Shown one piece after another: positions 5,525-63,679 of a stretch of 64,000 bases of DNA (position 1 is the first letter of the stretch; each line of letters starts with the position of its first letter). The DNA is taken from the sequence record LC765218.1; one strand, given 5' to 3'. Position numbers and translations under genes: made by a program. This stretch comes from Pseudomonas phage BRkr. A model generated the notes under the pieces. It was given only the letters and a program-made list of their open reading frames with translations. It searched no databases and was not told the DNA's origin.

Positions 5525-5531
5525 CCCGAAC

Positions 5532-5547
5532 GGGGACTTCGGTCCCC
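5532..5547 (+). terminator. hairpin GGGGAC-TTCG-GTCCCC
   Basis: 6 bp stem, UUCG loop, weak T tract. Confidence 0.5.
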
Positions 5548-5571
5548 ATAACTTTCCTAAAGGAAAAATAA

Positions 5572-6459
5572 ATGATTCGAATTACTCAGCTTCACGGTAA
5601 CGGCCTGGCAGATCACTACGATTGTCAGCCCTTTAAATTCCCTGGCGGTGAGATCGGTATCAAGATCCCTCTGAAAGATCACAGAAAGAAAGGTGAACAA
5701 TTCATAGTCAATGCTTGGCTTCGTAATAGCGATGACATCATGGAACTGTTCCTGGTGTTCGATGCTATTCGTCGTCAACGTATTCGTCCTGAAATGCACC
5801 TGGTTATTGGTTATCTGCCGTATGCACGACAAGATCGTGTTTGCGATGAAGGTGAACCTTTGTCGATCAGTGTGATGACTAGCTTGATCAACGCATTGGA
5901 TGCTACATCCGTGTGTTTGTACGATCCGCACAGCAATGTGTCGCTACCGCTCATCAACAACTGTCGTGAAATCACCCAAGCTGATATTATCAAGAGCTGG
6001 GTATGTGTAGAAGGACAACTTCTGGAAACTCCACAAGAATGGTGGTTGGTTGCCCCTGATGAAGGTGCACGTAAAAAGATCGAAGCCATTGCAAAAGAGA
6101 TTGGCGCTGCTGGCGTACTCTACGCTTGCAAGAACCGTGAACTGTCGACTGGTAAGATCACCCATACGTCTTTGTTGAATGCCCATGATGTTCCTCGGTT
6201 AGCAAAGCTGTTGGTTATCGATGACATCTGTGATGGTGGCCGCACGTTCATTGAACTTGCTAAGGTTATCCACGAACAGTGCATCGTAGATCAACTGGGT
6301 CTGTTTGTAACCCATGGTATTTTCTCCAAGGGTTTCGACGAGCTGAACGAATACTACGACTATATCCAGACCACTAACACCTATCATCCTAACGCCGTAA
6401 ATGATTATCGGCATGATGGTGTACGTGACCCGAAATTCTTCTCCCATTCTGTTTTCTAA
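5572..6459 (+). CDS. ribose-phosphate pyrophosphokinase (PRPP synthetase) family protein; candidate ADP-ribose pyrophosphokinase
   Basis: Motifs GYLPYARQDR, LYDPHS (DLHA equivalent), LLVIDDICDGGRTF PRTase loop; RBS AAGGA. Confidence 0.85.
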   Translation: MIRITQLHGNGLADHYDCQPFKFPGGEIGIKIPLKDHRKKGEQFIVNAWLRNSDDIMELFLVFDAIRRQRIRPEMHLVIGYLPYARQDRVCDEGEPLSISVMTSLINALDATSVCLYDPHSNVSLPLINNCREITQADIIKSWVCVEGQLLETPQEWWLVAPDEGARKKIEAIAKEIGAAGVLYACKNRELSTGKITHTSLLNAHDVPRLAKLLVIDDICDGGRTFIELAKVIHEQCIVDQLGLFVTHGIFSKGFDELNEYYDYIQTTNTYHPNAVNDYRHDGVRDPKFFSHSVF

Positions 6460-49939: not shown

Positions 49940-49982
49940 GTCCTCTCCTTCGGGAGAGGACTTATGTCTTATTTTTTTTTAT
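49940..49982. terminator. bidirectional terminator at the strand switch: hairpin GTCCTCTCC-TTCG-GGAGAGGAC + T-run
   Basis: lies between the convergent + gene (ends 49930) and - gene (ends 49979). Confidence 0.7.
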
Positions 49983-51139
49983 TCCATCAGCTTCCAGCAG
50001 ATATCGATATTAGATAGTAACCAGTGGTCATACCAAAGAATAGTAGCTCCAGTGGTATTCTGCCTAACGTACTTAGATGCTTTGTTATTAGATAGTGCCA
50101 CAGCTGTATACGCATCTTTCTTATTTATCATGTCGTATTTAACTTGTAAGTTAGATGCCGTACGTAAAAGTTTATTGTTGTTCATAGGTGTAAATAAGTT
50201 ATCAAACATCCATTGATCCATAATGAATGGTCGATAGGTATGCCCTTGATAAACAATATCACGACCTTGTTCAACTAAGCCTTTAAACCTACTATCACTT
50301 TTAATTTGCGGTGTTATATAAGTACCATCGAGCGTACCTGTAACAGCTGAAAAACCTGGATCAAAATCATTATTACCGAGAACGGTTACATACTCTTCAC
50401 TAGATAAGTTATTCTCATCGAGAGCACTTGCAAATAAACGGCGATATAAGTAATTATATTCACTGTCTGTAATTACGCGTACTACATACTCGTAACCATC
50501 TTTTGTTAATCGTGCTTTCCCTTGTGGGTATTCACCTAGATGGCTCGCTGTCTCTGGTGTATTTGTATTAACTAAGTCGTTAGCATACGCAGCACCTGCT
50601 ATGTAGAGATCTCTAAAGGATGCCCGTACAAGAGGTCTAGTTGGAACAAGTAGTACTTTGTTATTGTAGATACATTTCTCTAAGCGACCATTTGTTTTAT
50701 CACTTGGCACTATTCCATTATCCGCTCCACCCATAGCACTGACAATTTCATCAGTCCAGAAAGGTGGTGTATCAAATGTACCGTAGCGTCCTTGTAGAGA
50801 GTCTCCACGAATAACAAAATCAGGGAAACCTGGTTTAATTTCTAGACCAGTATTCCTTCGAGCTGATGTGGGGTATAGGGAACTGTATCTTGTTGTTCCA
50901 CGATACTCTAAACCAACCATGTAATACACTAGTCGATCATCATCTACTGTATCATCTCTGAAAGATAATGTGCCACGAAATACAGTAATCAAAGGTTCAG
51001 GTAAATTGTATTCTGTGAACCTATTATAACTTCGATAAATATTGATCGTATAATTTTCACCCATCGGGAGATTATTATAGTCAGCTAGATTGATAATAAT
51101 CATTGTGTGTCTAAGCCACCGTAAGTTAAGATTGGCCAA
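49979..51139 (-). CDS. hypothetical structural-region protein (paralog-like N-terminus NLNLRW; TTG start at 51139, ATG at 51103)
   Basis: N-terminal M-x-N-L-N-L-R-W mirrors the upstream gene's M-I-N-I-N-L-R-W only if the TTG start is used. Confidence 0.6.
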   Translation of the reverse strand: MANLNLRWLRHTMIIINLADYNNLPMGENYTINIYRSYNRFTEYNLPEPLITVFRGTLSFRDDTVDDDRLVYYMVGLEYRGTTRYSSLYPTSARRNTGLEIKPGFPDFVIRGDSLQGRYGTFDTPPFWTDEIVSAMGGADNGIVPSDKTNGRLEKCIYNNKVLLVPTRPLVRASFRDLYIAGAAYANDLVNTNTPETASHLGEYPQGKARLTKDGYEYVVRVITDSEYNYLYRRLFASALDENNLSSEEYVTVLGNNDFDPGFSAVTGTLDGTYITPQIKSDSRFKGLVEQGRDIVYQGHTYRPFIMDQWMFDNLFTPMNNNKLLRTASNLQVKYDMINKKDAYTAVALSNNKASKYVRQNTTGATILWYDHWLLSNIDICWKLME

Positions 51140-52080
51140 ATCAAAGCATGATTAACAGCTGTCTCTAATTCAGGTTCTTCCGATCTGTACGTTACCGGCA
51201 TTATTAAGTTAGCCGGATCAGTCGGGGAATCAGGAATATTTTTCGTCCAGTGTAATAGAGTTCTATCACTGTATTGTTGACCAGGACCAATTGATGGGAT
51301 GGATGTAAGTATAGTCCCGCTCAGTTCCCCTTGTGTGAAATGTGCAACGTTGCTATAGAAAGAGAACTTACCCGTTTTATTCGGGTTTATTTTCTGCCCT
51401 GTTACGTTACCATAAACCGTATCGATAACTCGACCGTACATTTCAGAAATAACATCGATCATATTTGCCAATGGAATAAATGTTCCATCTTTCATGTCAA
51501 GGGCTTGAGGGAATTGAACAATCCATCTATGACCACCTTTATTAACAGCTATCCAGCCTCCGTCTAGTAATGTCTTATAATTTTCATTCTCTTTATCAAC
51601 TTCATTATTATACGCTATCGGATATTCTAAGATATATTTAGATATACCGCGAATTCTATATTTATGCAAGTTGATGTTAGGCGGTGTTACTGGTGCAGGA
51701 ACAGTTATTCCGATCGCACTCCGAAGATCATCCAACGTAGGAATAATAGTCGATGAAATTTCATTGTGAGTACAATAGCCAAAATGTGCGTCACCAAACA
51801 CAGTTCTACCTAGACCAGGACCTGTGTCATTTTCACCTGAGAAACTAAATATCTTTGACCATGCTTCTTTATGATTATCCAAGGTAGTTTTAAGTCTATA
51901 TGTGTAAGTAGTAGACTCATCTAGCCCTTGATCTTGATAGCGTTCATCCGATGTTGGAACGGTAGCAATTAGAATACCTTCCCATTCGGCTAATGGTGCA
52001 TTACCTTCCGCTCTGTAGATACTTGTAAACGTTGGTTTATCCGGTAATGGATCCACCCAACGTAAATTGATGTTAATCAT
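51100..52080 (-). CDS. hypothetical structural-region protein (N-terminus MININLRW)
   Basis: ATGA coupling at both ends. Confidence 0.65.
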   Translation of the reverse strand: MININLRWVDPLPDKPTFTSIYRAEGNAPLAEWEGILIATVPTSDERYQDQGLDESTTYTYRLKTTLDNHKEAWSKIFSFSGENDTGPGLGRTVFGDAHFGYCTHNEISSTIIPTLDDLRSAIGITVPAPVTPPNINLHKYRIRGISKYILEYPIAYNNEVDKENENYKTLLDGGWIAVNKGGHRWIVQFPQALDMKDGTFIPLANMIDVISEMYGRVIDTVYGNVTGQKINPNKTGKFSFYSNVAHFTQGELSGTILTSIPSIGPGQQYSDRTLLHWTKNIPDSPTDPANLIMPVTYRSEEPELETAVNHALIWPILTYGGLDTQ

Positions 52081-52226
52081 TGCTCTTCCTCAACGTCTGC
52101 TCGGTCAGCAGGTAATACGGTTGTAAAAGATAAGGCAATTGGGATAATACCATCTGTCTCATTAAACAGATCAGTTATCGGAAGTAGTATTTCTCTACCG
52201 TCGATTGTTAATAATGCTTCAAACAT
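52077..52226 (-). CDS. small 49-aa protein carrying only the MFEALL N-terminal motif shared with the Kelch proteins
   Basis: ATG...ATGA coupled to the downstream gene; below the track cutoff; MFEALLTIDGREILLP... Confidence 0.45.
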   Translation of the reverse strand: MFEALLTIDGREILLPITDLFNETDGIIPIALSFTTVLPADRADVEEEQ

Positions 52227-52333
52227 AAATATCTCACTATAGTTGACGGCATACACGAAGCCATTAAAATGACTCCGCGCATGCGTACTACATATCTACT
52301 GAGAAGATACACCTTCATATCATACCGGCATAA

Positions 52334-52356
52334 AGCCTTCCCCAACGGGAAGGCTT
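52334..52356 (-). terminator. hairpin AAGCCTTCCC-CAAC-GGGAAGGCTT
   Basis: lies after the end of the - strand gene 52362. Confidence 0.55.
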
Positions 52357-52361
52357 TTATG

Positions 52362-52538
52362 TTATTTATTTCTACGGGTTATCCGATAACCAAGTGCACC
52401 GAGATCAACTCTGAAAAACCCTTTACCTTTATTGAAACCACCACCAACTCTAACCATACGATCGCCTTTCGGCATCTCTATTTCAGTTAGTTTAAATGTA
52501 CGAGTGAAAGCTACATACTTGTGAACCAGTGTACTCAT
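52362..52538 (-). CDS. hypothetical small basic protein (58 aa)
   Basis: ATG at 52538 with RBS GAGGTG; avoids overlap with the upstream gene. Confidence 0.45.
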   Translation of the reverse strand: MSTLVHKYVAFTRTFKLTEIEMPKGDRMVRVGGGFNKGKGFFRVDLGALGYRITRRNK

Positions 52539-52545
52539 AATCACC

Positions 52546-52806
52546 TCAATGTAAAACGTTCGAACCGTCATGCTTATGGCAATCGCAGGTACAGAGTTCT
52601 TGCTCAATTCCACCTATGATTACAAACGTAGCCTTAGCTACAGGTACATCATGTTTCTTAGCATGCCATACAGCTAACTCATCTGTACGTTCTTTCTGAA
52701 CGATATCGTCTACAACGCCAAATATCTTTCTTAATACATCGATGTTAAAACTACCATCACGATTGATGTAGTTCATATAGACGGCATTACAACATGCGAA
52801 AGCCAT
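52546..52806 (-). CDS. hypothetical Cys-rich small protein
   Basis: TAATG coupling to the upstream gene. Confidence 0.5.
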   Translation of the reverse strand: MAFACCNAVYMNYINRDGSFNIDVLRKIFGVVDDIVQKERTDELAVWHAKKHDVPVAKATFVIIGGIEQELCTCDCHKHDGSNVLH

Positions 52807-53105
52807 TACTGTTTACTCCCTGTATAGAACAATGGACGCAAATCAGTTTGATAATACTCGTCCTTCACGTGTGTAAAGTTCTTATCAAAGCTTTCTGTTT
52901 TATAGGAAGTTCTCAATCCGTTAGGCCATACAACGAGCATATCACCAACTTCAAAGTCAGTGATCAGAGACTCGAATTCATTAGGGGTAATGGTATCACC
53001 GCCCGTCTTAACGAACCGACTAGCTATAAATCCACTCCCCCAATCAGAAGACATCCAGGCACCAGCTTCTGTGATAAGTTTTGCACGAACTAGAGTTTTA
53101 GTCAT
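52806..53105 (-). CDS. hypothetical protein
   Basis: coupled ORF. Confidence 0.5.
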   Translation of the reverse strand: MTKTLVRAKLITEAGAWMSSDWGSGFIASRFVKTGGDTITPNEFESLITDFEVGDMLVVWPNGLRTSYKTESFDKNFTHVKDEYYQTDLRPLFYTGSKQ

Positions 53106-53283
53106 ATTTGTTTCCCCAGTTTACTGTTTTGTTGAGAAGAGTAGCACTTGGCTTTCTATTCCGAATTTGTCTTTTAATAGATTCGTTTAGCTCTTCCATT
53201 GTTTCTCGAACTTTAGCCAATCGTTCCTTTTGTTCATTTGTAGGAACACTACTAGCTATACCCTGCAAAGCTTTTAGTGACAC
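53098..53283 (-). CDS. hypothetical small protein
   Basis: 8 nt overlap with the downstream gene. Confidence 0.45.
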   Translation of the reverse strand: MSLKALQGIASSVPTNEQKERLAKVRETMEELNESIKRQIRNRKPSATLLNKTVNWGNKYD

Positions 53284-53336
53284 GTCTTTACCCTAGATAA
53301 TGTTTAACCATAGGATCTGGTCTTTCAGTATATTCA

Positions 53337-53900
53337 TCATTGTATTTGGATTGAAGTCTCATAACCGCCAGACGTCTTGTACGACCTGAATCTTTTTGGA
53401 ACTGGTATATCGTAACGACGGCACCATTTTCTAACAGCGTTATCTGATACGCCGTATTTCTTCCCAATTTTAGTTAATGGTAAAATATGTAGATCGGCAA
53501 TGAGCTGATCTTTATCGGGTCGCTCCACTTTACGATTACCTTTACCCGTGCATTCAAGGCTACAATAATATTCTTGCTCTGTACTAAGTACAGAACCACA
53601 ACATCTACAAAGTTTAGTGGGGTACTTAGTTGGATCTATACCCATCCTCCGCATCCATGCATGTAATTTAACATGCATTGCATCGGGAAGGATTAGTAGA
53701 TTTTCTGGGTGATTATTGGACCTGTTCTCATCCAAGTGATGTACAACTTCATCGTCATATAAAGGACGACCCAATACTTCCTCGGCTACGACTCGATGTT
53801 CATAAACCCACCCCCACATATTCTTATTCTTCTTAGCTTCTGGGTGATCCGGCCTATAAAGCAAAATATATCCGTTCAGTTCTCTCGAACGCTCTTCCAT
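53337..53900 (-). CDS. HNH homing endonuclease (paralog 1)
   Basis: HNH motif HHLDENRSNNHPENL; C-terminal Cys4 plus HTH-like KYGVSDNAVRKWCRRY; closely related to 61604..62161. Confidence 0.85.
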   Translation of the reverse strand: MEERSRELNGYILLYRPDHPEAKKNKNMWGWVYEHRVVAEEVLGRPLYDDEVVHHLDENRSNNHPENLLILPDAMHVKLHAWMRRMGIDPTKYPTKLCRCCGSVLSTEQEYYCSLECTGKGNRKVERPDKDQLIADLHILPLTKIGKKYGVSDNAVRKWCRRYDIPVPKRFRSYKTSGGYETSIQIQ

Positions 53901-53975
53901 AATTCATTGCTCCAGGTTCAATCAATTATACAGCATATTGCAACTGGACCCAACCAGTTGCAATACATTAGAGAC

Positions 53976-54056
<81 letters not shown>

Positions 54057-54119
54057 ATTTGAATTGAGTACTGGAATCTACATCACTGAATACTCTCGTA
54101 TACTATTAGACACGAAGTA

Positions 54120-55700
54120 TTATTTTATTTCGTATTCGACTACGGGTGTTGTTTTAGATACATCACCACCAAATCGATAGACTCCATCGGATACAACTAA
54201 CATCTCTTCATACGAAGAAATAGCTGGGAAGGTATCTCCGATTAGTTCTGGCTCTTTATTAAGTTGCACCAAAGCTAATCGTGTTCCGGAGTTATTCGTC
54301 ACATAGATGTTATTACCGAATATGATTCCTCTATACGTCGAATATTTGTTGGCAGGCGCATTCAAAGGAATGACTTCAGTTGTACTAAAATCAGAACTAA
54401 TCTTTACGTAGTCCGTTGGCGAGATGTTTGTCCCACCTATTGTTAATCTACCTTGAGATGCAACGATAACTAATTCACCATTATCGTTAAATCCTAAATT
54501 ATGATGCCATAATTCAATTGGTAGAACATCAGCAATCATGCCGATTTCATATGTCGTAAGGTTAACTGTTATAATGTTCTTATGGATTTTATCACTGCGT
54601 CCAGAGAAACCACCAACAATGTACAGTATATCGTCTTTAACTATACTAGCTGTACGTTCGATGTAATATGCATCGACTAAACCTGGAATAGCAGCTAGCT
54701 TTTTAGTTTCCCATGTGTCGGTAGCTATCGTGTAAATATAAATAGTCGGACCAGTAGACAATGGGTTACCATGCAAAATCAACTTACCATTATTGTAAAC
54801 CATATTGGTTGTAGTTGTCTCGCCTTGGAACGGAACTGTAGATGGTAACTTGGTCCATGTTTTAGTATCTCGGTCTAACCGATGTAAGTCGGACATGAAC
54901 GTAGTAGGTCCTGTTGTATATCCACAGGCCATGTAAATATCGTTGTTATCCGAATCATACGCGAGTACTGGCATCCCACGTTGCGGCGGTGGATTTACAG
55001 TCGACAATACAGAGGTAATACCTTTAAGTTCCTTTGGCGGAATATATTCAAGTACCGGTCGCCATCCACGATAACTAGTAGCTTCTGTTGGCGGATGACC
55101 ATCGTAAATATAAAGGCCATTCTTTGCCTGAGGATGAGTTGTCGATGGTGAAAACTGTAGGTAATTACCATTGGTATTTCTATTAGCCGCCCAGTTATAA
55201 CTTCCGTTTCCGGCGCCTATAAGTTGTTCATCTGTGTACTTTGCCCAACTTCCTTTAGTTGTAACATTGCCAAAAATATCCCACAATTCAGAACCTTCAT
55301 TACCTTGAGTAGCGATATCCGAATAAGGATTTACTCCAGCATTCATTAGACGAACTTTAAACATGTTCCCATCGATTACAATAACTTTACTACCATCTAT
55401 TAAACCAGCCTCGTCAAGTTGGTTTGGACTAATGGAATGGAGAATAGCTGTCTTCGAATAATAAAGAATAACATTATTTCTAGATACTTTAATCCAACCA
55501 GCATCTGTATTTATAGTACCAATGGAGTCAAGCTCAACAAGTGTTCTTAACTGAGGGTAAGTTATAAACTTGTCGCTTGTCAACTCACCATACAGACCAA
55601 GTGTCGAATCACCTTGTTCAAAGGTAGATGGACCCGGTAGTTTATTTCCTGTAGCCTTAATGAGTGCAGACAATAATGATTCGAACATAATTTTATCCAT
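54120..55700 (-). CDS. Kelch-repeat beta-propeller protein 1 (candidate tail fibre/receptor-binding protein); N-terminus MDKIMFESLLSAL
   Basis: repeated hydrophobic-GG Kelch blades; MFExLL motif 4 codons after the first ATG. Confidence 0.75.
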   Translation of the reverse strand: MDKIMFESLLSALIKATGNKLPGPSTFEQGDSTLGLYGELTSDKFITYPQLRTLVELDSIGTINTDAGWIKVSRNNVILYYSKTAILHSISPNQLDEAGLIDGSKVIVIDGNMFKVRLMNAGVNPYSDIATQGNEGSELWDIFGNVTTKGSWAKYTDEQLIGAGNGSYNWAANRNTNGNYLQFSPSTTHPQAKNGLYIYDGHPPTEATSYRGWRPVLEYIPPKELKGITSVLSTVNPPPQRGMPVLAYDSDNNDIYMACGYTTGPTTFMSDLHRLDRDTKTWTKLPSTVPFQGETTTTNMVYNNGKLILHGNPLSTGPTIYIYTIATDTWETKKLAAIPGLVDAYYIERTASIVKDDILYIVGGFSGRSDKIHKNIITVNLTTYEIGMIADVLPIELWHHNLGFNDNGELVIVASQGRLTIGGTNISPTDYVKISSDFSTTEVIPLNAPANKYSTYRGIIFGNNIYVTNNSGTRLALVQLNKEPELIGDTFPAISSYEEMLVVSDGVYRFGGDVSKTTPVVEYEIK

Positions 55701-55823
55701 TGAAAAGTGACTGTTTACAGAGGGGTGGCTGTATAGAACTTCACGTTCCTACTCCCTTTCCGTCTAAGGCCTCCCCATTATAGGTACTTACCAAAAGACT
55801 AAATCATACAATTTGCAACATAA

Positions 55824-55844
55824 AGCCCGCCTTTCGGCAGGCCT
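55824..55844 (-). terminator. hairpin after tRNA-Leu
   Basis: AGCCCGCC-TTTC-GGCAGGCCT; one wobble/mismatch. Confidence 0.4.
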
Positions 55845-55852
55845 TATTAAAA

Positions 55853-55938
55853 TGGTAGGAGCAGAGGGACTCGAACCCACAGTGCCTTACGACGGCTGGA
55901 CCTAAACCAGCTGGCTATACCAATTCGCCTATGCTCCC
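55853..55938 (-). tRNA. tRNA-Leu (anticodon UAG), type II
   Basis: acceptor GGGAGCA/TGCTCCT with G1-U72, anticodon stem GCTGG/CCAGC, loop TTTAGGT, long variable arm, T-loop TTCGAGT, CCA encoded. Confidence 0.7.
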
Positions 55939-55996
55939 ATGTAAAATAGCGCTTAACGCTAATTCTTACATATAATCACTATACCAGTATTTCTTT

Positions 55997-56935
55997 TCAC
56001 GGGTTTTCTGGATCGTAAACCCACAGGTCATTATGATAGACACCATTTGTATAACCACCAGATAAATAAATCTTACCGTTATAAACTTCCATATTGGCGT
56101 AGAACCGAGTAGGCGGCATCTTACCAGGAGGAAGAATTATATTTGACCATGTGTCAGTTTCAATATCGTAAACACTGAAAATATGATCGTTATTAATAGT
56201 GTTAGGAGTAGAACTTGTACCAGATTGACCACCGAATACATAGATCTTATTGTTAAGAGCTACGGCAGAATGTCTGTTCCTATTTACAAGACCATTCTTG
56301 TGGGGTGTCCATGTATTGTTGTCGACATTATAACTTCTGAATGTGGCAACTGACGTATTAGCTGTTTCATAGCCACCTAACGTGTAGAGGCGTCGACCAT
56401 GACTTGTTAAAGTCGCATAACGAATTTGATAAGGTGGTGTCAAGTTAGCTACTGTGAAGTTATCGGTATTATAGCTCTTAAATTCATACATAATACCTTG
56501 TGCACCGTTACCACCAAATAGGTACACCTTATTATCAATAGCTGACATGCAATGACTGTTACGTACGGCCAATCCACCATTAGAGCGTGTTACAGGTGTA
56601 ATTGTCTCACCATCAATCGTAAACTCAATCATCGTGTTTGTATCAGCAGAACCAGTGTATCCACCGAATACATAAAACTTGTTATCAACTAAACCACCAG
56701 CTGCACGTAAATTAACGTTTGCTCCTGCCGGTAGTTCTTTCCATTCGTCTGTTAAGAAATCATAGACGGATACAGTATTGAACGCGTTAGTGGTAGCACG
56801 TCTACCACCGAAGATATAAAGTTTGTCTCCTACGACAACAGAGGTTGACTGGTTTCTTCCGACGTCGGGTCCCTGTAGCTGAACCCAACCTTGCTTACTT
56901 TTATATTCCCCAATTCCTAACAATGCTTCAAACAT
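55997..56935 (-). CDS. Kelch-repeat beta-propeller protein 2; N-terminus MFEALLGIGEY
   Basis: blades LYIFGG, FYVFGGYTG, VYLFGGNG, LYTLGGYE, IYVFGGQSG, IYLSGGYTNG. Confidence 0.8.
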   Translation of the reverse strand: MFEALLGIGEYKSKQGWVQLQGPDVGRNQSTSVVVGDKLYIFGGRRATTNAFNTVSVYDFLTDEWKELPAGANVNLRAAGGLVDNKFYVFGGYTGSADTNTMIEFTIDGETITPVTRSNGGLAVRNSHCMSAIDNKVYLFGGNGAQGIMYEFKSYNTDNFTVANLTPPYQIRYATLTSHGRRLYTLGGYETANTSVATFRSYNVDNNTWTPHKNGLVNRNRHSAVALNNKIYVFGGQSGTSSTPNTINNDHIFSVYDIETDTWSNIILPPGKMPPTRFYANMEVYNGKIYLSGGYTNGVYHNDLWVYDPENP

Positions 56936-56969
56936 AACGATTACCTTTCGTCAAAATCATAACATATAA

Positions 56970-56985
56970 CCTCCCCGAAGGGAGG
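56970..56985 (-). terminator. hairpin CCTCCC-TTCG-GGGAGG (minus-strand reading)
   Basis: embedded in ACATAA...TTATGT. Confidence 0.55.
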
Positions 56986-56995
56986 CTTTATGTTT

Positions 56996-57211
56996 TTAAT
57001 CTTGATTAGCTAACCATTCTTTAAGAAGAGCAACGAAATTGACAGGCTCTTTTACAATTTGACCATTTCGACAAACTGGTACTTTTTCAATATTCGGGTC
57101 ATCCATAATTGGTCGATACCATTCCTGGAATTTCTTATTCAGGTCCCGACTAAAAATTTCCGTAATGAGTGCGCCAAGTCCATCGTCTTGGAACGGAGCG
57201 GTTTCGTACAT
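56996..57211 (-). CDS. hypothetical small protein (start MYETAPFQ)
   Basis: ATG at 57211 with RBS AGAGGAA; overlaps the 3' end of the upstream ORF by 72 nt. Confidence 0.35.
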   Translation of the reverse strand: MYETAPFQDDGLGALITEIFSRDLNKKFQEWYRPIMDDPNIEKVPVCRNGQIVKEPVNFVALLKEWLANQD

Positions 57212-57498
57212 TTTTGTTCCTCTGTAGTTATAGCAAGTTTTACAAGGGCTAGCCGGTGGGTTACCCAAGCTGTAATGAAATCTCCACGTGTAGTACAATC
57301 GTAGCTTACATGTGCTTGATATTCAGGATGGTTAATATTGAATTTATCTATGACCTTAGACCGTAGATAGTCTTCGGCTGCTTTTGTTGACATCCCTTCT
57401 ATATTTGGGAATTCTTCAATAAGTAGCTCTGACAACATTTTATTTCTTGAAGCTAGGTCTATATCAGCCTCAGTATGACATGGCATGAAAGCTGTCAT
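57139..57498 (-). CDS. hypothetical protein
   Basis: strong RBS AAAGAGGTAACC before the ATG. Confidence 0.55.
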   Translation of the reverse strand: MTAFMPCHTEADIDLASRNKMLSELLIEEFPNIEGMSTKAAEDYLRSKVIDKFNINHPEYQAHVSYDCTTRGDFITAWVTHRLALVKLAITTEEQKCTKPLRSKTMDLAHSLRKFLVGT

Positions 57499-57500
57499 GG

Positions 57501-57692
57501 TTACCTCTTTACATCCTTTGACATACTGTTATATAGCCCAGTATAAAACGACATAAAACTCTCCTTATCGGAGAGTCGTATATCGGATATCAAAACCAGT
57601 CTCTTTTTGATCATGACATCCATCGTGAGGTGACAGTTAGTGGAACTGAAGAGACACCTTTCCGTATGGTCGGCCCAATCGACTTCCCTCAA
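57501..57692 (-). CDS. hypothetical small protein
   Basis: ORF ends 2 nt before the next start. Confidence 0.35.
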   Translation of the reverse strand: MREVDWADHTERCLFSSTNCHLTMDVMIKKRLVLISDIRLSDKESFMSFYTGLYNSMSKDVKR

Positions 57693-57849
57693 TCATCGGC
57701 TTACCACTATTAGCCTTTGGTTTCCAGGTGCTATAAATGGTCACATCGAAATACTACAGTCTACTGGGCCTAATGTGAGATGTTTCTACAGGCAGCTTTC
57801 GATGAAGTAACTTTGTTCGTTACATACTGTAACCAACAGAGTATTTTTT

Positions 57850-57996
57850 TTAATCTAACGTACAGAGTACACCGATTAAACGGAACGGGCAGGTCAAGAC
57901 CCACCAAATAGCTTCAAATACTGCACCAATTATTTCACCAACTACATTGAGGGCTTGTCGCCCTTTATGCTGTTTTTCTTTTTTGACATCGGTCAT
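57850..57996 (-). CDS. very small membrane protein (48 aa, 1 TM)
   Basis: TAATGA-coupled to the upstream small ORF; hydrophobic VVGEIIGAVFEAIWWVLTCPF; below track cutoff. Confidence 0.3.
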   Translation of the reverse strand: MTDVKKEKQHKGRQALNVVGEIIGAVFEAIWWVLTCPFRLIGVLCTLD

Positions 57997-57998
57997 TA

Positions 57999-58169
57999 TT
58001 AACAAACCATAATTGGTACTTCAAGACCATTGCGTTCACAATGTTCTTCAAGTTTACGTTGAGCTTGGTTGAACTTAGCTAGTTCTTCAAGAGTTTTCTT
58101 TTGGTTATCAGCAAGTTGTTCTGGACTCTGACAATCGCGAATTGCTTTTATAGAAAGATTAGGAATCAT
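57999..58169 (-). CDS. very small protein (56 aa)
   Basis: ATG with RBS GGGTGA 3 nt after the upstream gene's stop; below track cutoff. Confidence 0.3.
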   Translation of the reverse strand: MIPNLSIKAIRDCQSPEQLADNQKKTLEELAKFNQAQRKLEEHCERNGLEVPIMVC

Positions 58170-58172
58170 AGG

Positions 58173-58707
58173 TCACCCGAAAGATTTACGTGCATCTGCT
58201 TCATTATCAAACAAACGACAACCCCAGATATAAGCTGCATCCAGTTCACCCCGGAAACAGTCTTTAACTTCTTTACTAGCTGTCTTCATGTAGTTATCTA
58301 CTGCATCTAAGAAAGAGTAACCTTCAGCTTTACCTACAAAGCTAGCTATACTGGATTCACCAGTAGCTCGATGACCTTCTTGCCAAATCTCATACTCTTT
58401 CTTCTTAAGTACAGTACCACGTTGTTCTTCTAAGACTTTCATTACTTGATCAAAGTCTTCATAACCCATGCGACTGAGACGAGCAATGAGACTTTGCTGT
58501 GCTTTACCATCTAACAACGTCTCATGCATCTCTTTGGTGGCTTCTAGGTACACGCCGTTTTGGAGGAGGATCAAGAAGTCATTAAACTTCATATATTCAC
58601 CACCCTCGTTATCTAAGACCATCTTAGTCTCATTGACAGTGTCCTGTGGACTCAATAGAATCTTAGGCACTGCGGGCGACCAACGTTTAATCAAACTTAA
58701 TGCTGAC
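58173..58707 (-). CDS. hypothetical protein
   Basis: ATG at 58707 with RBS AAAGGAAA (the track's first ATG at 58736 abuts the terminator hairpin). Confidence 0.55.
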
Positions 58708-58739
58708 ATGTTATTTCCTTTTGTAATAGTTGACATAAA

Positions 58740-58759
58740 GCTCTCCCCGAAGGGAGAGC
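58740..58759 (-). terminator. hairpin GCTCTCCC-TTCG-GGGAGAGC (minus-strand reading) + TTTATGT
   Basis: just downstream of tRNA-Tyr. Confidence 0.6.
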
Positions 58760-58772
58760 ACTATGACGCATT

Positions 58773-58860
58773 GGTGGAGAGGACTGGACTCGAACCAGTA
58801 ATGCCCGATACGGACGGCTGATTTACAGTCAGCTGGGGTTACCAATTTTCCTATCTCTCC
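58773..58860 (-). tRNA. tRNA-Tyr (anticodon GUA), type II
   Basis: acceptor GGAGAGA/CCTCTCC (A7-C66 mismatch), anticodon stem GCTGA/TCAGC, loop CTGTAAA, long variable arm, T-stem ACTGG/CCAGT, CCA encoded. Confidence 0.75.
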
Positions 58861-58904
58861 GAAATCTGGTATAGTCTTACATAGTATTACTATACCAGTA
58901 TTTA

Positions 58905-60752
58905 TTAAATTCCAAGACGATAGAACTTGTCTGTAATTGTATTATTACTGGCTCCAGTTAGACCACCGCCAACATATGCTGTGCCATTAATAAATCCACC
59001 ATAGCCATCATTCACACCGTTTGGTAGTTCTGGTAGTTTACGCCAAGTTCTCGATTGGATATTATACGCATTGGCTTTTCTACGTTTGTCTTCGTCAACA
59101 CCGCCAATGTATATAATTTCTTCATCGTTAGTCAGCATTACACCGTAACTGTTAACACCTGGCCCATCGGTAGTCGGTAGAGACTCCCATGCAAATGTAT
59201 TCATATTCATTCGATCAAATCGACCGGATTGCGAACCATTTACAAATCCACCATAGACATACATGTACTCGCCGACAACAACCGCTCTATGTGAAGATCG
59301 TTGGATACCACCTTGCGCGACTCGTTTTGACCACATGTTAGATGCAATATCGTAGACGAACAACGCGTCAGATTCATTATTCCCGCCAAGCAAATAGAGC
59401 TTACCATTATAATGAACCATCGTAGCTTGTGTTCTAAATACTGGATTAGATGAACCCGGAGAAGCGGGTGTAATAGCCGTCCAATCATTGGTCGCTACGT
59501 TATAACGCCAGAAATCCGCTGATTGGTTAGATCCACTGAATAGGTACATATGTGTATCATTTGCAGCTGCACACATATTGGCACGTGCACTCGGACTTAA
59601 ACCAGATCCAGTGAATAGACCGTTCCATGTATTAGTCTCAGGATTATATTTATTAAACGCGCCTCTATATGCACCTGTACTTGTATACCCGCCGAACATA
59701 TACAGTTCATCATCTATTACAACCGCAGTGGAACCTCGACTATCATAAGGTGCGTTTGCCATTACTTCCCATTCAGTTTTACTTGGAGGGATAGGAATAG
59801 TGAATTTATAGATAGCTGCTTTCGTTCTTTCAGGGGTGTTAAAAAGGGCATCATCGATAACAATGTCCGAACCACCGATCAGATACAGATCGCCATTCGA
59901 TGGATTTAATGCGACTGATGTCCCATGGACCTCACCAATATTCGTCTCAGTAACAACAAATTGTTTTTCGGCGATATAATAACGAACACAATGAATCTTA
60001 CCATCTTTAACGATAGTGTAGTTAAAAGTCCCGTTCCAGTACTTACCACCTTGATGACCACCGTGGTAGTCTGTAGAGTATGAATGGTACAATGTCCATG
60101 TATTAATAGCACCGGTGTATTTATAAACATCTTGGTTAACAACCCAACTGCCAGAGATGTTCTTCCATCCACCCATCACATAGAAATTCCCTTTATGGCA
60201 GAATGCATACGCTCCAGATAGAATAACAGGGCACCGGGCACTCATTACTTCTCGAACGTTATTCGATAGTCTATAGCGAATCAAAAGATCTGTTGCATGT
60301 TCCAGTACCCAAATAAATTCACCGCCATCCCAATCGCCGATACTGTTATAAGTGGATGTATTCATCAACTGATTACTAATAAGATTATCATTAGGTACAG
60401 TTGGATTGATCATCGTGATGACGTTTTGTGTCCAAGAAGCGCCACGACGCCCACCGAACATGTAAAGTCTATCGGATGTTGGAACAAATACACCCGCCGT
60501 ATGACAAAGTGAATAACTATTTTGGACAGCTGTTTTACTGATTTGAGTACCAGTGCTATCAAAAATTCTGATGTTATTATCAGTTGTACTTCTTGATGGG
60601 GCACCACTATTAATATTTAATAAACCATTTCTGAAATAGGGTACCGATCCAACCAATCCAACATCCAGTTGTCCAAACAATGTTGGTTGGTTATACGGTA
60701 TCATTTCCACTGGCTTAGCTTGCCCAGCAGCTGATAACAATAATTCAAACAT
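58905..60752 (-). CDS. Kelch-repeat beta-propeller protein 3 (615 aa); N-terminus MFELLLSAAGQ
   Basis: at least 9 Kelch-like blades (LYMFGGRRG, FYVMGGW, LYLIGGSD, LYMFGGYTS, MYLFSGSN, LYLLGGNN, MYVYGGF, IYIGGVDED, AYVGGGLTG). Confidence 0.8.
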   Translation of the reverse strand: MFELLLSAAGQAKPVEMIPYNQPTLFGQLDVGLVGSVPYFRNGLLNINSGAPSRSTTDNNIRIFDSTGTQISKTAVQNSYSLCHTAGVFVPTSDRLYMFGGRRGASWTQNVITMINPTVPNDNLISNQLMNTSTYNSIGDWDGGEFIWVLEHATDLLIRYRLSNNVREVMSARCPVILSGAYAFCHKGNFYVMGGWKNISGSWVVNQDVYKYTGAINTWTLYHSYSTDYHGGHQGGKYWNGTFNYTIVKDGKIHCVRYYIAEKQFVVTETNIGEVHGTSVALNPSNGDLYLIGGSDIVIDDALFNTPERTKAAIYKFTIPIPPSKTEWEVMANAPYDSRGSTAVVIDDELYMFGGYTSTGAYRGAFNKYNPETNTWNGLFTGSGLSPSARANMCAAANDTHMYLFSGSNQSADFWRYNVATNDWTAITPASPGSSNPVFRTQATMVHYNGKLYLLGGNNESDALFVYDIASNMWSKRVAQGGIQRSSHRAVVVGEYMYVYGGFVNGSQSGRFDRMNMNTFAWESLPTTDGPGVNSYGVMLTNDEEIIYIGGVDEDKRRKANAYNIQSRTWRKLPELPNGVNDGYGGFINGTAYVGGGLTGASNNTITDKFYRLGI

Positions 60753-60820
60753 GAGTATGCTCTCAAGTAAACCATTTAGTTCATAAGATAATCAGTTTGA
60801 ATAAGTTGTAGGATGTATTG

Positions 60821-61477
60821 CTATTTCGTTATGGTTAACTCAACTTTTAAATACGCTCCGGGACTTGGAGGGTCATTAGGTTCAATAACCCGGAACGTTA
60901 TCGTATCCCCATATTTTTCTTTAATAGCCGATTCGAACGCATATATCGAAACATATTTATTATCTACAAAAATGTCGAAGGTTAGAACTGGTGGAATTGT
61001 CCTATATTCAGGGCTGGCCGGTGCCATATTTTCAGTTAAATAGATTAATGCTTCAGTTACACGTGTATCAATTTGGTATAGTAAATCATCTAACATTTCT
61101 ATATTGGTTAATCGTCCAACATTTCTATCATCCTTAATTATTTTATCGGCCAACTGTTTAGGTACAGGTGATAAAATAACATGTTTTCCTTTATATGCTT
61201 CAGCATGAGGTAATGGATCTTCTATTAAAAATACATTAATAAATCCAAATCCATCATACTCAATATCGTGTGTAGATGTATTTATGCCTAGTGACAGTAC
61301 TCCCTCACGTAACATATAGCCTTTAGCTAACACCTCATATGAATCAAGTGTTCTATGATATTTTGATCCATCTTCTATATGAGGACCACCATGGGTTCTA
61401 TGTCCTACAGCATTTATAACCTTAACTTCCATAAGGTTACTGTCATCTAAAAACAGGCCTTTTGATCTATTCAACAT
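60821..61477 (-). CDS. hypothetical protein
   Basis: RBS TAGGAGAT. Confidence 0.6.
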   Translation of the reverse strand: MLNRSKGLFLDDSNLMEVKVINAVGHRTHGGPHIEDGSKYHRTLDSYEVLAKGYMLREGVLSLGINTSTHDIEYDGFGFINVFLIEDPLPHAEAYKGKHVILSPVPKQLADKIIKDDRNVGRLTNIEMLDDLLYQIDTRVTEALIYLTENMAPASPEYRTIPPVLTFDIFVDNKYVSIYAFESAIKEKYGDTITFRVIEPNDPPSPGAYLKVELTITK

Positions 61478-61526
61478 TTTCAGTATCTCCTATAACTCCG
61501 ATATTGGAGTATAACATCACGGCATA

Positions 61527-61552
61527 AAAGAGTAGCCAATGGCTACTCTTTT
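61527..61552 (-). terminator. hairpin AAAAGAGTAGCC-AAT-GGCTACTCTTTT immediately 3' of the tRNA 3' fragment
   Basis: same repeat family as 62214..62237. Confidence 0.5.
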
Positions 61553-61557
61553 GAATT

Positions 61558-61590
61558 TGGCTCCGCGACCTGGACTCGAACCAGGGACCC
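61558..61590 (-). pseudogene. tRNA 3' half (T-arm CCTGG-TTCGAGT-CCAGG + acceptor 3' strand TCGCGGA-G-CCA)
   Basis: canonical T-arm and CCA end; acceptor strand is the exact complement of the 5' fragment at 62341..62374. Confidence 0.6.
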
Positions 61591-61603
61591 AGTATATTTT
61601 TTT

Positions 61604-62161
61604 TTATTGTGTGGGGACCAAGGTGCTAATACCCCCATTAGCACCGACCCTAATAAACCTAGCCGGAATATTGATCTTGTATGCTCGGCACCATTTACGA
61701 ATAGCGTTATCGGATACTCCATACTTCTCTCCTATTTTTACAAGTGATAGCAATGTAACATCGAGGGCAAGTTGTTCTTTGGATGGTCGATCCACCTTAC
61801 GACGACCTTTGGCTGAACACTCGGGGCTACAGAATGTTATCAGTCGGTGACTAATGACAATACCACAGCCAGCACAAAGCTTAGTTGGATAGTTCCTAGG
61901 ATCAATACCGAGCCGTTTCATCCAACCATGTAACTTCATGTGTTGTGACTGAGGGAGAATCAATAAGTTCTCTGGATGGTTGTTAAGCTTATTCTCATCC
62001 AGATGATGAACTTCCTCGTCATCGTAAAGTGGTCTACCTAATGTGTCTTCTCCAACCACTCGATGTTCGTAAACCCATCCAAACATTTTAGGGTTAGCTA
62101 TGGCTTGACGATGTTCGGGTAAATATAATGCCCTATAGCCGTTAATTATTTTCTCTTTCAT
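61604..62161 (-). CDS. HNH homing endonuclease (paralog 2)
   Basis: VHHLDENKLNNHPENL; about 70% identical to paralog 1 over the conserved core. Confidence 0.85.
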   Translation of the reverse strand: MKEKIINGYRALYLPEHRQAIANPKMFGWVYEHRVVGEDTLGRPLYDDEEVHHLDENKLNNHPENLLILPQSQHMKLHGWMKRLGIDPRNYPTKLCAGCGIVISHRLITFCSPECSAKGRRKVDRPSKEQLALDVTLLSLVKIGEKYGVSDNAIRKWCRAYKINIPARFIRVGANGGISTLVPTQ

Positions 62162-62213
62162 ATCGAACCTAGGATATATAAATAGATCGCTAGTTCGATC
62201 TATGTGACGGAAT

Positions 62214-62237
62214 AAAGAGTAGCCGGAGCTACTCTTT
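62214..62237 (-). terminator. hairpin AAAGAGTAGC-TCCG-GCTACTCTTT 3' of the nested tRNA
   Basis: repeat of the 61527 hairpin. Confidence 0.5.
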
Positions 62238-62242
62238 GAAAT

Positions 62243-62329
62243 TGGCTGGTAAGGTAGGATTCGAACCTACGATGGGCTTTCGCCAACGGATTAACAGTCC
62301 GCCCCCTGCTACCGCTCGGGTACTTACCA
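62243..62329 (-). tRNA. unusual tRNA: anticodon GUU (Asn-type anticodon arm identical to E. coli tRNA-Asn) with a long type-II-like variable arm
   Basis: perfect acceptor TGGTAAG/CTTACCA, D-arm CCC-GAGCGGTAGCA-GGG, anticodon stem GCGGA/TCCGT, loop CTGTTAA, 15-nt variable arm with GGC-GAAA-GCC hairpin, T-arm GTAGG-TTCGAAT-CCTAC, CCA encoded. Confidence 0.6.
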
Positions 62330-62340
62330 AGAAAACTATC

Positions 62341-62374
62341 CAGTCGCTTGCTCTACCGACTGAGCTATCGCGGA
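62341..62374 (-). pseudogene. tRNA 5' half (acceptor TCCGCGA + D-arm GCTCAGTCGGTAGAGC)
   Basis: canonical 5' tRNA half with no matching 3' partner nearby; complements the 3' fragment 760 nt downstream. Confidence 0.6.
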
Positions 62375-62470
62375 AGAATTATTAACAACTTCTTTCTTGT
62401 AGAAAAATCACAAGTAACTGAATTACAGTATTTCACTACATATTATTACAATCTGAGTTAGATAGTTATT

Positions 62471-63478
62471 TTAATCAATGGCTAATGGTGCTAGTTTTAC
62501 CTGATAGATACCTGATAACAATTGGCTTTTTAACATATATGCTCCACCACCAACTGGCATTTTAGATCCACCTGCAATGATCATGCTATTATCTGGTCCT
62601 TTGGCTATAGATGAAATATTAAGGAATCCAATACCTAGTTCAAATGGTTCAGCCCATTTCCGGCGCCTAATATTAAAACGCTGTGCAAACATTTTAGTTA
62701 CACCGCCGACATCAACTGCATTAAGGTAATTAAAATATTCCCCATCTACATAACCATTACCTTGCCATATTGTTGCTTTGTCAGCAGGTATTATTAGCCA
62801 TGGTGTTAGTTCCCATACAAGTGTAGTAACATTGTATCTATAGACTTCTAAGTTTGGTATGTTCTTAGTATTATCCCAGCCACCAAAATGGTAGAAATAA
62901 CCATTATAATAAAATAATTGTTGACCTGACCTAGGTCCACCGCTATAGTCTTGACCGCCGAGCCAGTTCTTAGTCGATGGTTTTAATCGCATGGCGTTTG
63001 TACCAACTGGATTAACACACATAATAAGATCATTGCCATCAGACGCTGACGCAGTTCCCCATAATGCACCAGGACCACTATAACGCTCAACGCGACTACC
63101 TGTGCTTATATCAAAATGTTGTATAAAGTTAGAAGTACCTGTACCCCCATCACCTGCTGCGTTCCATCCAGTAATACCACCATAAACAATAAAGTTATTT
63201 TTATGTAATGTACCAAATCCAAGTGATACACCCGGTAAAAATGTACCAGATGCTGTTGCGCTTATCTCTGTAAATGGGTTTATAGTGAACCGTCTGAAAA
63301 CAGTTGCTGCTGATTGTCCTTCCGTATGATGTCCGGATCCAACATATAACGTATTTCCATCTACGTACGACATCGTACCTGCCAATGCTACCGGTAGGTC
63401 ACCTAATTTTATAATTTCACTAAATCCAACCAAGGGTGTTTCATCGCCTAAACCTGATGATAATAGTAATTCAAACAT
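62471..63478 (-). CDS. Kelch-repeat beta-propeller protein 4; N-terminus MFELLLSSGLG
   Basis: blades LYVGSG, FIVYGG, YFYHFGGW; 5' UTR nearly identical to that of protein 3. Confidence 0.75.
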   Translation of the reverse strand: MFELLLSSGLGDETPLVGFSEIIKLGDLPVALAGTMSYVDGNTLYVGSGHHTEGQSAATVFRRFTINPFTEISATASGTFLPGVSLGFGTLHKNNFIVYGGITGWNAAGDGGTGTSNFIQHFDISTGSRVERYSGPGALWGTASASDGNDLIMCVNPVGTNAMRLKPSTKNWLGGQDYSGGPRSGQQLFYYNGYFYHFGGWDNTKNIPNLEVYRYNVTTLVWELTPWLIIPADKATIWQGNGYVDGEYFNYLNAVDVGGVTKMFAQRFNIRRRKWAEPFELGIGFLNISSIAKGPDNSMIIAGGSKMPVGGGAYMLKSQLLSGIYQVKLAPLAID

Positions 63479-63556
63479 GAGTGTGCTCTCAAGTAAATCA
63501 TTTTAGATCATAGGATAACCTTTGCGGCTCAGATATTTATTTTATTATAATAGACA

Positions 63557-63602: not shown

Positions 63603-63679
63603 TGGTGGGTCCAGCAGGACTTGAACCTGCGACCAAGCGATTATGAGTCGCCTGCTCTAACCAACTGAGCTATAGACCC
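63603..63679 (-). tRNA. tRNA with anticodon CAU; anticodon and T arms match the tRNA-Ile2 (lysidine) type
   Basis: 77 nt cloverleaf; GGCGA-CTCATAA-TCGCT-TGGTC-GCAGG-TTCAAGT-CCTGC nearly identical to E. coli ileX; CCA encoded. Confidence 0.8.

Follow-up and report, generated by a model that had tools for sequence, protein, structure and literature searches.

A 13.5-kb region of Pseudomonas phage BRkr encodes a family of Kelch-type proteins that begin with the same short peptide, here called the tag. The region lies within a stretch of 64,000 nucleotides (nt) (LC765218.1; the window), and DNA comparison across it identifies the source as a phiKZ-like (PA1C/Pawinskivirus-type) Pseudomonas jumbo phage. 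Four Kelch proteins, K1 to K4, and a 49-amino-acid mini-protein, S49, carry the tag (Table 1). With a probability of roughly 0.6, the region is a set of late-expressed, interchangeable accessory adhesins docked through this common N-terminal element. Modular receptor-binding or fiber-like proteins with a kept anchor and recombining distal domains had been proposed in the initial annotation, and four independent lines support that proposal, as follows: the adsorption phenotype of the phiKZ protein gp298, the exchange of K3 between relatives, the conservation of the N-terminal motif, and the lectin-like fold of K1.

Virion presence and adsorption phenotype of orthologs

K4 is 91% identical to phiKZ gp298 and matches the corresponding family over its full length (PHROG 19623, E value of 1.6e-203 over residues 1 to 335). 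In phiKZ, gp298 is a Kelch-domain virion protein of low abundance, and orf298 is dispensable on PAO1 (PMC12676376; bioRxiv 10.1101/2025.11.23.690004). The orf298::Tn mutant adsorbs to PAO1 but does not adsorb to the clinical isolate PA1032 or the soil isolate Env201 (PMC12676376). This 2025 preprint contains no description of the N-terminal tag, of a family, or of cassette swapping. In its transposon sequencing (Tn-seq) supplementary tables, our own reading of unlabeled columns gives approximately one unique insertion in the 1,515 bp of orf83, versus 21 to 46 in orf298 (PMC12676376). If the columns are read correctly, this hints that gp83 is a near-essential family member on PAO1, with gp298 being accessory.

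When the complete phiKZ genome was scanned in six frames, exactly two open reading frames (ORFs) with an MFE.LL start emerged, gp83 and gp298. Both are annotated as virion structural proteins, and both translations contain Kelch repeats. Kelch virion proteins have already been remarked upon in the giant phages CBB, EL, and phiR1-37. Fossati 2023 gives no usable localization for gp83 or gp298.

The N-terminal tag

In the window, MFE.LL opens five minus-strand ORFs, at positions 63478 (K4), 60752 (K3), 56935 (K2), 55688 (K1), and 52226 (S49). No other MFE.LL string occurs in the six frames, and 200 shuffles gave a chance expectation of 0.01 such ORFs with a maximum of 1. The shared N terminus described in the initial annotation is therefore real, but it extends over about 7 residues and is not a module of ~40 amino acids. 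It consists of a predicted helix of ~7 to 12 residues, with the consensus M-F-E-x-L-L-[S/G/T], followed by a Gly/Pro-rich linker. AlphaFold predicts the helix at residues 2 to 12 of K1, ahead of the linker, with a predicted local distance difference test score (pLDDT) of ~68. In K4, residues 1 to 12 lie outside the confident propeller core, and the tag has a pLDDT below 50. When delimited at 54120..55700, the K1 ORF opens with an in-frame ATG located four codons ahead of the MFE (MDKI-MFESLLS); for its PA1C and PS119XW orthologs, the annotated start is the MFE, giving 522 amino acids.

The conservation of the motif in relatives, which the initial annotation had left to be checked, was found in other genera and in metagenomes. 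PA1C encodes at least six tag proteins in the parts scanned, namely, the four K orthologs, QBX32236, and QBX32393. QBX32236, at the gp83 position, carries the tag and two tandem copies of the N-terminal domain of K1 (domain A, described below) with no Kelch repeats, and QBX32393 carries the tag (MFEVLLSLSQ...) and domain A. The tag proteins of PS119XW start with MFESLLS, MFEVLLG, and MFELLLA. A broader form of the tag, M-[FIL]-E-x-[LM]-[LM], heads phiKZ gp83, Noxifer gp078 (MLELLIG) and gp079 (MIEMMMG), 201phi2-1 gp452 (MIDLLMT; a virion protein by mass spectrometry) and gp443 (MIDALLF), and many metagenomic proteins, and a further variant is that of PhiPA3 gp360 (MFEILLS). The copies differ by synonymous codon changes (TTT/TTC, GAA/GAG, TTA/CTA/TTG/CTC, and TCA/AGT), which argues that selection acts on the peptide. 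The string "MFELLL" was found in no paper of the searchable literature.

Relatives of domain A were drawn from 1.8 billion representatives, and the N termini of the best 150 were inspected. Thirty of these 150 start with M[FILYVM]E.[LMIV][LMIV], a count that rises to ~45 when one position is relaxed. Three other kinds of N terminus were recognized by eye among the same 150. About 20 proteins have the tail-fiber-type start "M.T.F.RGT..ENN.L.L..GELSVD," whose core, RGT..ENN..L..GELSVD, we take to be Mtd type or Mtd-like. About 13 have an I-x-L-x-W...(I/V)YRS module, as in the window proteins F1 and F2, and a further group has M-x-x-[AL]-L-x-x-AA...R-x-R. Among the tag-bearing loci in IMG/VR, 17 of 24 are on contigs of at least 214 kb, and several genomes have more than one. 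From these alternative N termini and contig sizes, the MFE.LL-type tag is one of several interchangeable heads for one kind of binding module and is characteristic of jumbo-size phage genomes. The modules behind it vary in metagenomic proteins: P0081 and P0102 combine the tag with Kelch repeats and domain A, and P0033 combines it with a stretch read by eye as a LamG/ConA-like candidate and domain A.

On IMG/VR contigs of 250 to 254 kb (L032/L062, L043/L057, and L036/L075), at least two domain A paralogs share a different common tag (e.g., MIHALTIAAHQARIRYG and MNPLMIAASETRRRLG). Such tags on other jumbo-size contigs suggest the existence of clade-specific "dialects."

The tag was rejected as a "Velcro" strand that closes a propeller because it also precedes a nonpropeller domain in K1, gp83, and many domain A proteins of 200 amino acids. 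Its occurrence alone in S49 and the helix predicted in K1 speak against the same reading. It is also unlikely that the proteins are virion-borne adhesins attached via other surfaces, with the tag acting as an assembly-chaperone signal or as a short oligomerization or folding helix. The tag is indeed a short hydrophobic helix of moderate predicted confidence at best, as the pLDDT values in K1 and K4 indicate. It is, however, the sole element common to unrelated C-terminal folds and to a 49-residue protein with nothing else to fold, and other domain A proteins carry at the same position the N terminus that we read as that of an Mtd-type tail fiber.

Predicted Kelch propellers and a lectin-like domain

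The four minus-strand Kelch genes with MFE(L/A/S)LL starts were confirmed, with strong Pfam matches for K2 and K3, a single repeat for K1, and a structural model for K4. The divergence described for their distal parts is borne out by pairwise identities of just 20 to 27%. K2 matches Kelch_1 with 154.9 bits and four repeats. K3 matches the Pfam Kelch families with an E value of 3e-39 (135 bits for PF24681). Its N-terminal half aligns to the whole of K4 (24% identity, E value of 1e-11) and to PHROG 19623 (E value of 8e-12 over residues 1 to 306), and its C-terminal half aligns to K2; the same architecture is seen in PhiPA3 gp360. In K1, the Kelch match is confined to residues ~231 to 383, with one Kelch_6 repeat above the cutoff (33.3 versus 25.3 bits). 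K1 also matches the gp83-type family PHROG 16120 (E value of 3e-30, residues 1 to 365 against profile positions 1 to 360), and its tblastn alignment to phiKZ gp83, which starts with MFELLLSSGL, spans 1 to 447.

The Pfam Kelch score of K4 is just below the cutoff (24.6 versus 25.3 bits). Its AlphaFold (AF2) model is all beta, with a pLDDT of 62.6 and a predicted template modeling score (pTM) of 0.68, and resembles the six-bladed Kelch propellers of KLHDC10, KLHDC3, and LZTR1 (Foldseek E value of 5e-10, TM score of ~0.6) at modest model confidence. The model was built from only 7 sequences because word-indexed homolog searches with K4 alone and with a K4/K3 profile each returned only two close gp298 clusters. 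Sequence searches of the PDB with K3 and K4 retrieved generic Kelch proteins and no phage virion chain.

The Pfam results also bear on whether the propellers are enzymes rather than receptor binders, for example, a NanM-like sugar mutarotase or an oxidase-like protein acting on host surface glycans or in metabolism, which is improbable. K2 and K3 score 68.4 and 62.6 bits, respectively, for NANM (PF24996), against a cutoff of 45, and one GenBank record names the ortholog nanM. K4 scores 19 bits, below the cutoff, and K1 has no match to NANM at an E value below 0.01. The NANM matches, however, underlie stronger generic Kelch matches from the same clan, and the closest structural matches, those of the K4 model, are protein- or ligand-binding Kelch domains with 12 to 15% identity. 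Moreover, the gp298 phenotype is a loss of adsorption, and even an enzyme would count as an adsorption factor if its action exposed a receptor.

Domain A of K1 was modeled from an 82-sequence alignment as a compact alpha/beta domain behind the helix and linker, with a pLDDT of 86.5 and a pTM of 0.84. The predicted fold is similar to those of solved C-type-lectin-fold proteins, namely, Lcl-C (DUF1566), TvpA, Bd2740, Mtd, and many animal C-type lectin-like domains, with sequence identities of 7 to 14% to the first four. Residues 1 to 230 of K1 have no Pfam match at an E value below 0.01 (no DUF1566, Mtd, or FGE-sulfatase), and the modeled likeness to C-type lectins is one of fold and not of family membership. 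Lectin-type folds of this kind are used by Mtd of Bordetella phage BPP-1 and at the Bd2740 fiber tip of Bdellovibrio. In the comparison with BPP-1 Mtd, Treponema TvpA, the Legionella Lcl C-terminal domain, and Bd2740, no sign of a diversity-generating retroelement was seen.

A word-indexed homolog search with residues 1 to 228 gave no match, and an exhaustive HMMER search with residues 1 to 235 retrieved 754 cluster representatives at an E value of 1e-3 or better. Among predicted viral structures, domain A recurs in chimallivirus "virion structural proteins"; matches were obtained to proteins with this label from PS119XW, Rebecca, RisingSun, Noxifer, and PhiPA3 and, further, from PhiEaH1, EL, RSL2, Phabio, and 201phi2-1. 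In a Clostridium siphophage, domain A is part of a large protein encoded directly after the tape measure, Dit, and the next tail gene (Tal).

Cassette exchange at K3

The nearest relatives of the region are phiLBG22 and PA1C, with ~98% identity over the shared parts, followed by PS119XW (genus Pawinskivirus). A comparison of the locus across relatives, proposed in the initial annotation as a check for propeller swapping, revealed such swapping at K3. This protein has just 24% identity to its PA1C allele and 30% to its PS119XW allele, compared with 88 to 99.6% for the other Kelch proteins and the flanking ORFs: K1, 99.6% in PA1C and 88% in PS119XW; K2, 99% and 97%; ORF187, 97% in both; and K4, 97% in PA1C, the gene being absent in PS119XW. 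At the DNA level, the match to PA1C (97.6% identity) runs from position 53974 to 58906, where it breaks off precisely at the stop codon of K3; it picks up again within ORF218, at 61107. K3 is a cassette swapped between near-identical phages. ORF218 has 47% protein identity to its PA1C counterpart, with a 5' part that is ~90% identical in DNA, and has no Pfam or PHROG match; the ORF could be a partner specific to the K3 allele or could simply mark where the swapped cassette ends.

A second type of change involves the segment that contains the promoter, the 5' untranslated region (5'UTR), and the tag codons, which is present as a direct repeat of ~60 nt upstream of K4 (63458 to 63517) and K3 (60732 to 60791). 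The two copies are identical at 42 of 45 nt around the ATG. The near identity of the two 5'UTRs noted initially holds, at 88% over positions −40 to −1; identity is 70% over the first 40 coding nucleotides and ~50% (background) elsewhere. PS119XW is devoid of K4, tRNA-Asn, HNH2, and ORF218, and its K3-type gene lies directly behind a K4-type upstream region, with the junction inside the repeat. This junction fits what recombination between the repeats would produce.

Putative late promoters

The late-promoter consensus of phiKZ is TATG, where the G is the start site (PMC4666361). The sequence GTTATCYTATG is found ~30 nt before the ATG in K4, K3, the PA1C K3 and K4 genes, phiKZ gp298, PS119XW gp383, and PhiPA3 gp360. 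K2, gp83, and 201phi2-1 gp443 and gp452 have a TATG 23 to 35 nt upstream, directly after a GC-rich hairpin. This pattern fits independent late transcription units for the Kelch genes, the 4-mer by itself being a weak signal.

It is very improbable that the conservation at the 5' end serves chiefly as a nucleic-acid signal for late transcription and translation initiation, with the peptide as a by-product. The promoters and 5'UTRs of K3, K4, phiKZ gp298, and PS119XW gp383 do match at nearly every base, and the opening codons have a very high AT content. Nevertheless, K1, K2, S49, gp83, and the PA1C K3 protein keep the peptide despite different 5'UTRs, and the codons vary synonymously. In GC-richer phages, M-[LI]-E-x-[LM]-[LM] is retained but encoded by other codons, and the motif is maintained across hundreds of divergent metagenomic proteins.

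The S49-F2-F1 operon

The coupling of the 49-amino-acid ORF to two further genes through ATGA overlaps, as initially described, is correct, provided that F1 starts at the ATG at 51103 and not at the TTG at 51139; the S49/F2 overlap is ATGA in any case. S49 has orthologs in SL2 (gp017, 52 amino acids, MFEALLF...) and 201phi2-1 (gp443, 53 amino acids, MIDALLF...) that are 35 to 40% identical and likewise lie directly in front of homologous operons for virion proteins. S49 is a real gene. Expression of S49 and F2 as one product, by a programmed frameshift or a fusion, was rejected because the junction differs in each phage (ATGA here, an 11-nt overlap in SL2, and a 1-nt gap in 201phi2-1), showing that S49 and F2 are separate genes.

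The 201phi2-1 operon products gp442 to gp439 were all detected in virions by mass spectrometry, and F2 is 31% identical to gp442 and to SL2 gp018. The N-terminal module of F2 is weakly FN3-like (Pfam fn3 E value of 0.085, subthreshold). In the phage collection, no homolog of F2 exceeds 60% identity. PA1C and PS119XW contain no close DNA match to F2, and the whole segment from 50357 to 52331, comprising S49, F2, and F1 except for its 3' third, is without a DNA match in either phage. F1 and F2 match the same PHROG (1062) as K1 and therefore carry a related module. The C-terminal 131 amino acids of F1 (49979 to 50371) are 90% identical to a 294-amino-acid protein that PA1C and PS119XW encode at this position, and its N-terminal 243 amino acids are unrelated to that protein. 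F1 is thus a mosaic with a kept C terminus and an exchanged N terminus, the reverse of the Kelch genes.

A fourth operon of this kind is found in PA1C at 212158 to 216022 (2158 to 6022 of locus L096), where QBX32393 is encoded first and is followed by three I-x-L-x-W...(I/V)YRS proteins. Its layout is the same as that of S49-F2-F1, SL2 gp017 to gp021, and 201phi2-1 gp443 to gp439, with a tag-bearing first gene ahead of tag-less YRS-type genes. The metagenomic protein P0034 combines the tag, ~55 amino acids, a YRS-type module, and domain A and is the fused counterpart of S49 and F2. The recurring layout and this fusion suggest that the first product recruits the others, with S49 serving as a putative adaptor that brings the tag-less F2 and F1 to the same site.

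Gene neighborhood

Genes are on the plus strand up to ~49.9 kb, and from 49979 onward all genes, including five tRNA genes, are on the minus strand. The initial annotation described Kelch genes interleaved with tRNAs and HNH genes, and five tRNA genes and two HNH genes are indeed present at those places (Table 1). In place of HNH1, PA1C and PS119XW have tRNA-Asp, with an additional 166-amino-acid ORF in PA1C. HNH2 is 99.5% identical in PA1C. A same-strand tRNA gene (Thr, Leu, Tyr, and Asn) is located 44 to 141 nt downstream of each of the four Kelch genes, and in PhiPA3, tRNA-Cys and tRNA-Thr come after gp360. Transcription of the tRNAs may start from the adhesin genes' late TATG promoters.

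Table 1. Features of the tag-protein region, by position in the window
Feature	Coordinates	Strand	Description	Remarks
F1	49979..51103	−	374 aa; mosaic, F2 class	PHROG 34810 and 1062
F2	51100..52080	−	326 aa; virion type, I-x-L-x-W...IYR N-terminal module and domain A-like part	PHROG 1062
S49	52077..52226	−	49 aa; tag-only mini-protein, first gene of operon	Tag and short conserved tail
HNH endonuclease 1 (HNH1)	53337..53900	−		Lineage-specific insertion; 60% aa identity to HNH2
tRNA-Thr	53976-54053	−		ARAGORN
K1	54120..55688	−	522 aa; tag helix, C-type-lectin-like domain A (aa ~25-220), and Kelch region (aa ~231-522)	phiKZ gp83 architecture
tRNA-Leu	55853-55938	−		ARAGORN
K2	55997..56935	−	312 aa; tag and Kelch propeller	Kelch_1 E value of 3e-46
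K2 upstream region	56936..56966	−	GC hairpin, then two TATG 23 and 28 nt before ATG	
tRNA-Tyr	58772-58860	−		ARAGORN
K3	58905..60752	−	615 aa; tag, gp298-like propeller, and second Kelch propeller	Hypervariable allele
K3 5' region	60732..60791	−	TATG (60785-60782), 5'UTR, and tag codons	Downstream copy of ~60-nt direct repeat
ORF218	60821..61477	−	218 aa	3' third covaries with K3 cassette
HNH endonuclease 2 (HNH2)	61604..62161	−	phiKZ gp296-like	PHROG 15471, E value of 5e-53
tRNA-Asn	62243-62329	−		ARAGORN
K4	62471..63478	−	335 aa; tag and predicted six-bladed Kelch-type propeller	phiKZ gp298 ortholog
K4 5' region	63458..63517	−	TATG (63512-63509), 5'UTR, and seven tag codons	Upstream copy of ~60-nt direct repeat
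tRNA-Met	63603-63679	−		ARAGORN
aa, amino acids.

Discussion

In the arrangement proposed here, each Kelch gene would be its own late transcription unit, with a TATG promoter ~30 nt upstream that often lies just after a terminator hairpin. The short N-terminal helix and flexible linker would form a common docking peptide for one type of virion site, most likely in the peripheral baseplate or fiber apparatus. Behind the linker, the ligand-binding ends would be six-bladed propellers in K2 and K4, two propellers in K3, and the lectin-like domain with the Kelch region in K1. One particle or population could thereby present a number of alternative adhesins, widening the range of strains to which adsorption is possible. 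S49 would recruit the tag-less virion proteins F2 and F1 to the site of the tag. The repertoire would change by replacement of whole cassettes, as at K3, and by recombination between the repeated promoter/5'UTR/tag segments, as between K4 and K3. The family, the conservation and context of the tag, the folds (that of domain A with confidence and that of K4 modestly), the K3 swap, the repeat-bounded indel, and, for orthologs, presence in virions and an adsorption phenotype are shown. Tag docking, the tail location, the adaptor role of S49, and ligand binding rather than enzymatic action by the propellers are the elements that we infer.

Several of the systems compared are close relatives. K4 shares with phiKZ gp298 (PHROG 19623) its promoter, 5'UTR, N terminus, and position in the tRNA region, with the N-terminal half of K3 being a distant paralog. 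Whereas phiKZ has gp298 and gp83 only, the phage of the window has four Kelch paralogs and the mini-protein operon. K1 has the architecture of gp83 (tag, domain A, and Kelch) and belongs with the "Kelch-like" virion family that includes phiKZ gp83, 201phi2-1 gp452 to gp456, and the EL proteins (PHROG 16120 and 1062). That family was previously annotated just as virion structural proteins, and the tag and the domain A fold are not pointed out in the searchable literature.

Other systems share the general logic. "Anchor-branch" systems of multiple receptor-binding proteins with exchanged modules include Klebsiella phage depolymerases, which carry a short conserved docking peptide at the N terminus, and the tailspike sets of CBA120 and G7C. 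The K family resembles them in the shared N-terminal element, the distal variation, and the exchange of modules between relatives. It differs in that the element is a helix of ~7 to 12 residues, the distal modules are Kelch or lectin-like and not beta-helix depolymerases, and one putative adaptor is a separate 49-amino-acid protein. The peripheral baseplate fibers gp131 to gp135 of phiKZ are also paralogs with similar N termini and differing C termini, and gp131 has a seven-bladed propeller at the fiber tip. Their N-terminal domain, however, forms a six-helix bundle, and they have been placed in a cryo-electron microscopy map, unlike gp83 and gp298. No sequence relation of K3 or K4 to gp131 to gp135 was detected, the PDB sequence searches with these two proteins returning Kelch proteins only. 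The chimallivirus DUF7941 filaments (Goslar gp22 and gp23; phiKZ gp126, gp127, and gp143) are multiparalog and baseplate associated, with carbohydrate-binding modules and a proposed role in host recognition, but they assemble head to tail via a globular domain and linker and not via an N-terminal heptapeptide. In Pfam, K1 to K4 match Kelch-clan families only, and F1 and F2 match none. No DUF7941 match was obtained for K1 to K4, F1, F2, or S49, in a Pfam copy in which the presence of this model was unconfirmed and with no positive control run.

The function of gp298 and the existence of Kelch virion proteins are thus already published, and the logic of conserved anchors with exchangeable receptor binders is already known. 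The searchable literature yielded no account of the heptapeptide that these proteins have in common, of its occurrence in several genera and ahead of several module types, of the mini-protein with the tag alone, of a lectin-like fold in domain A, or of allele swapping at K3.

A number of points weigh against docking of accessory adhesins through the tag. The anchor is a very short helix rather than a domain, and a motif of 7 residues is short for a specific interface. The "tail-associated" label of gp298 derives from its adsorption phenotype alone, and neither the phiKZ virion atlas (40 proteins) nor the capsid structure mentions or places gp83 or gp298. The K4 model, with its 7 sequences, is of modest confidence, and the promoter motif TATG is just a 4-mer. 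In addition, gp83 is labeled "structural head protein" in GenBank; this label is also attached to the tail sheath (gp29) and to the baseplate proteins gp27 and gp128, is therefore unusable for localizing gp83, and was rejected as evidence of its location (phiKZ record NC_004629).

Least probable of the alternatives is a tag that acts as a capsid-targeting signal, with the proteins inside or on the head and acting after injection or from the capsid surface: the GenBank label and the many proteins packaged by phiKZ-like phages would agree with it, but the label is equally attached to sheath and baseplate proteins, the capsid structure paper and the virion atlas are silent on both phiKZ proteins, and the lectin-like and propeller folds together with the adsorption defect fit an external location. 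Moreover, M-F-E does not fit the S/A/G-x-E pattern after which the phiKZ head protease cuts.

Returning to adhesins that share a docking tag, a wider generalization is conceivable, though we hold it only tentatively. M-[FIL]-E-x-[LM]-[LM] might be a portable, clade-wide docking tag, such that any module behind it is mounted on one conserved receptor site of the baseplate, with other jumbo clades using the analogous M-x-x-[AL]-L-x-x-AA...R-x-R. If this is true, the portable tag would amount to plug-and-play display and would explain how these phages build and reshuffle large repertoires of adhesins.

The phiKZ-like phages are leading models of the phage nucleus and candidates for therapy against Pseudomonas aeruginosa, and their host-range determinants are poorly known. 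The family described here would account for strain-specific adsorption such as that seen with gp298, and the tag together with its catalogue of modules provides a testable handle on where accessory adhesins attach. It may also offer a route to retargeting, by swapping the module behind the tag at K3, a locus that is already exchanged in nature.

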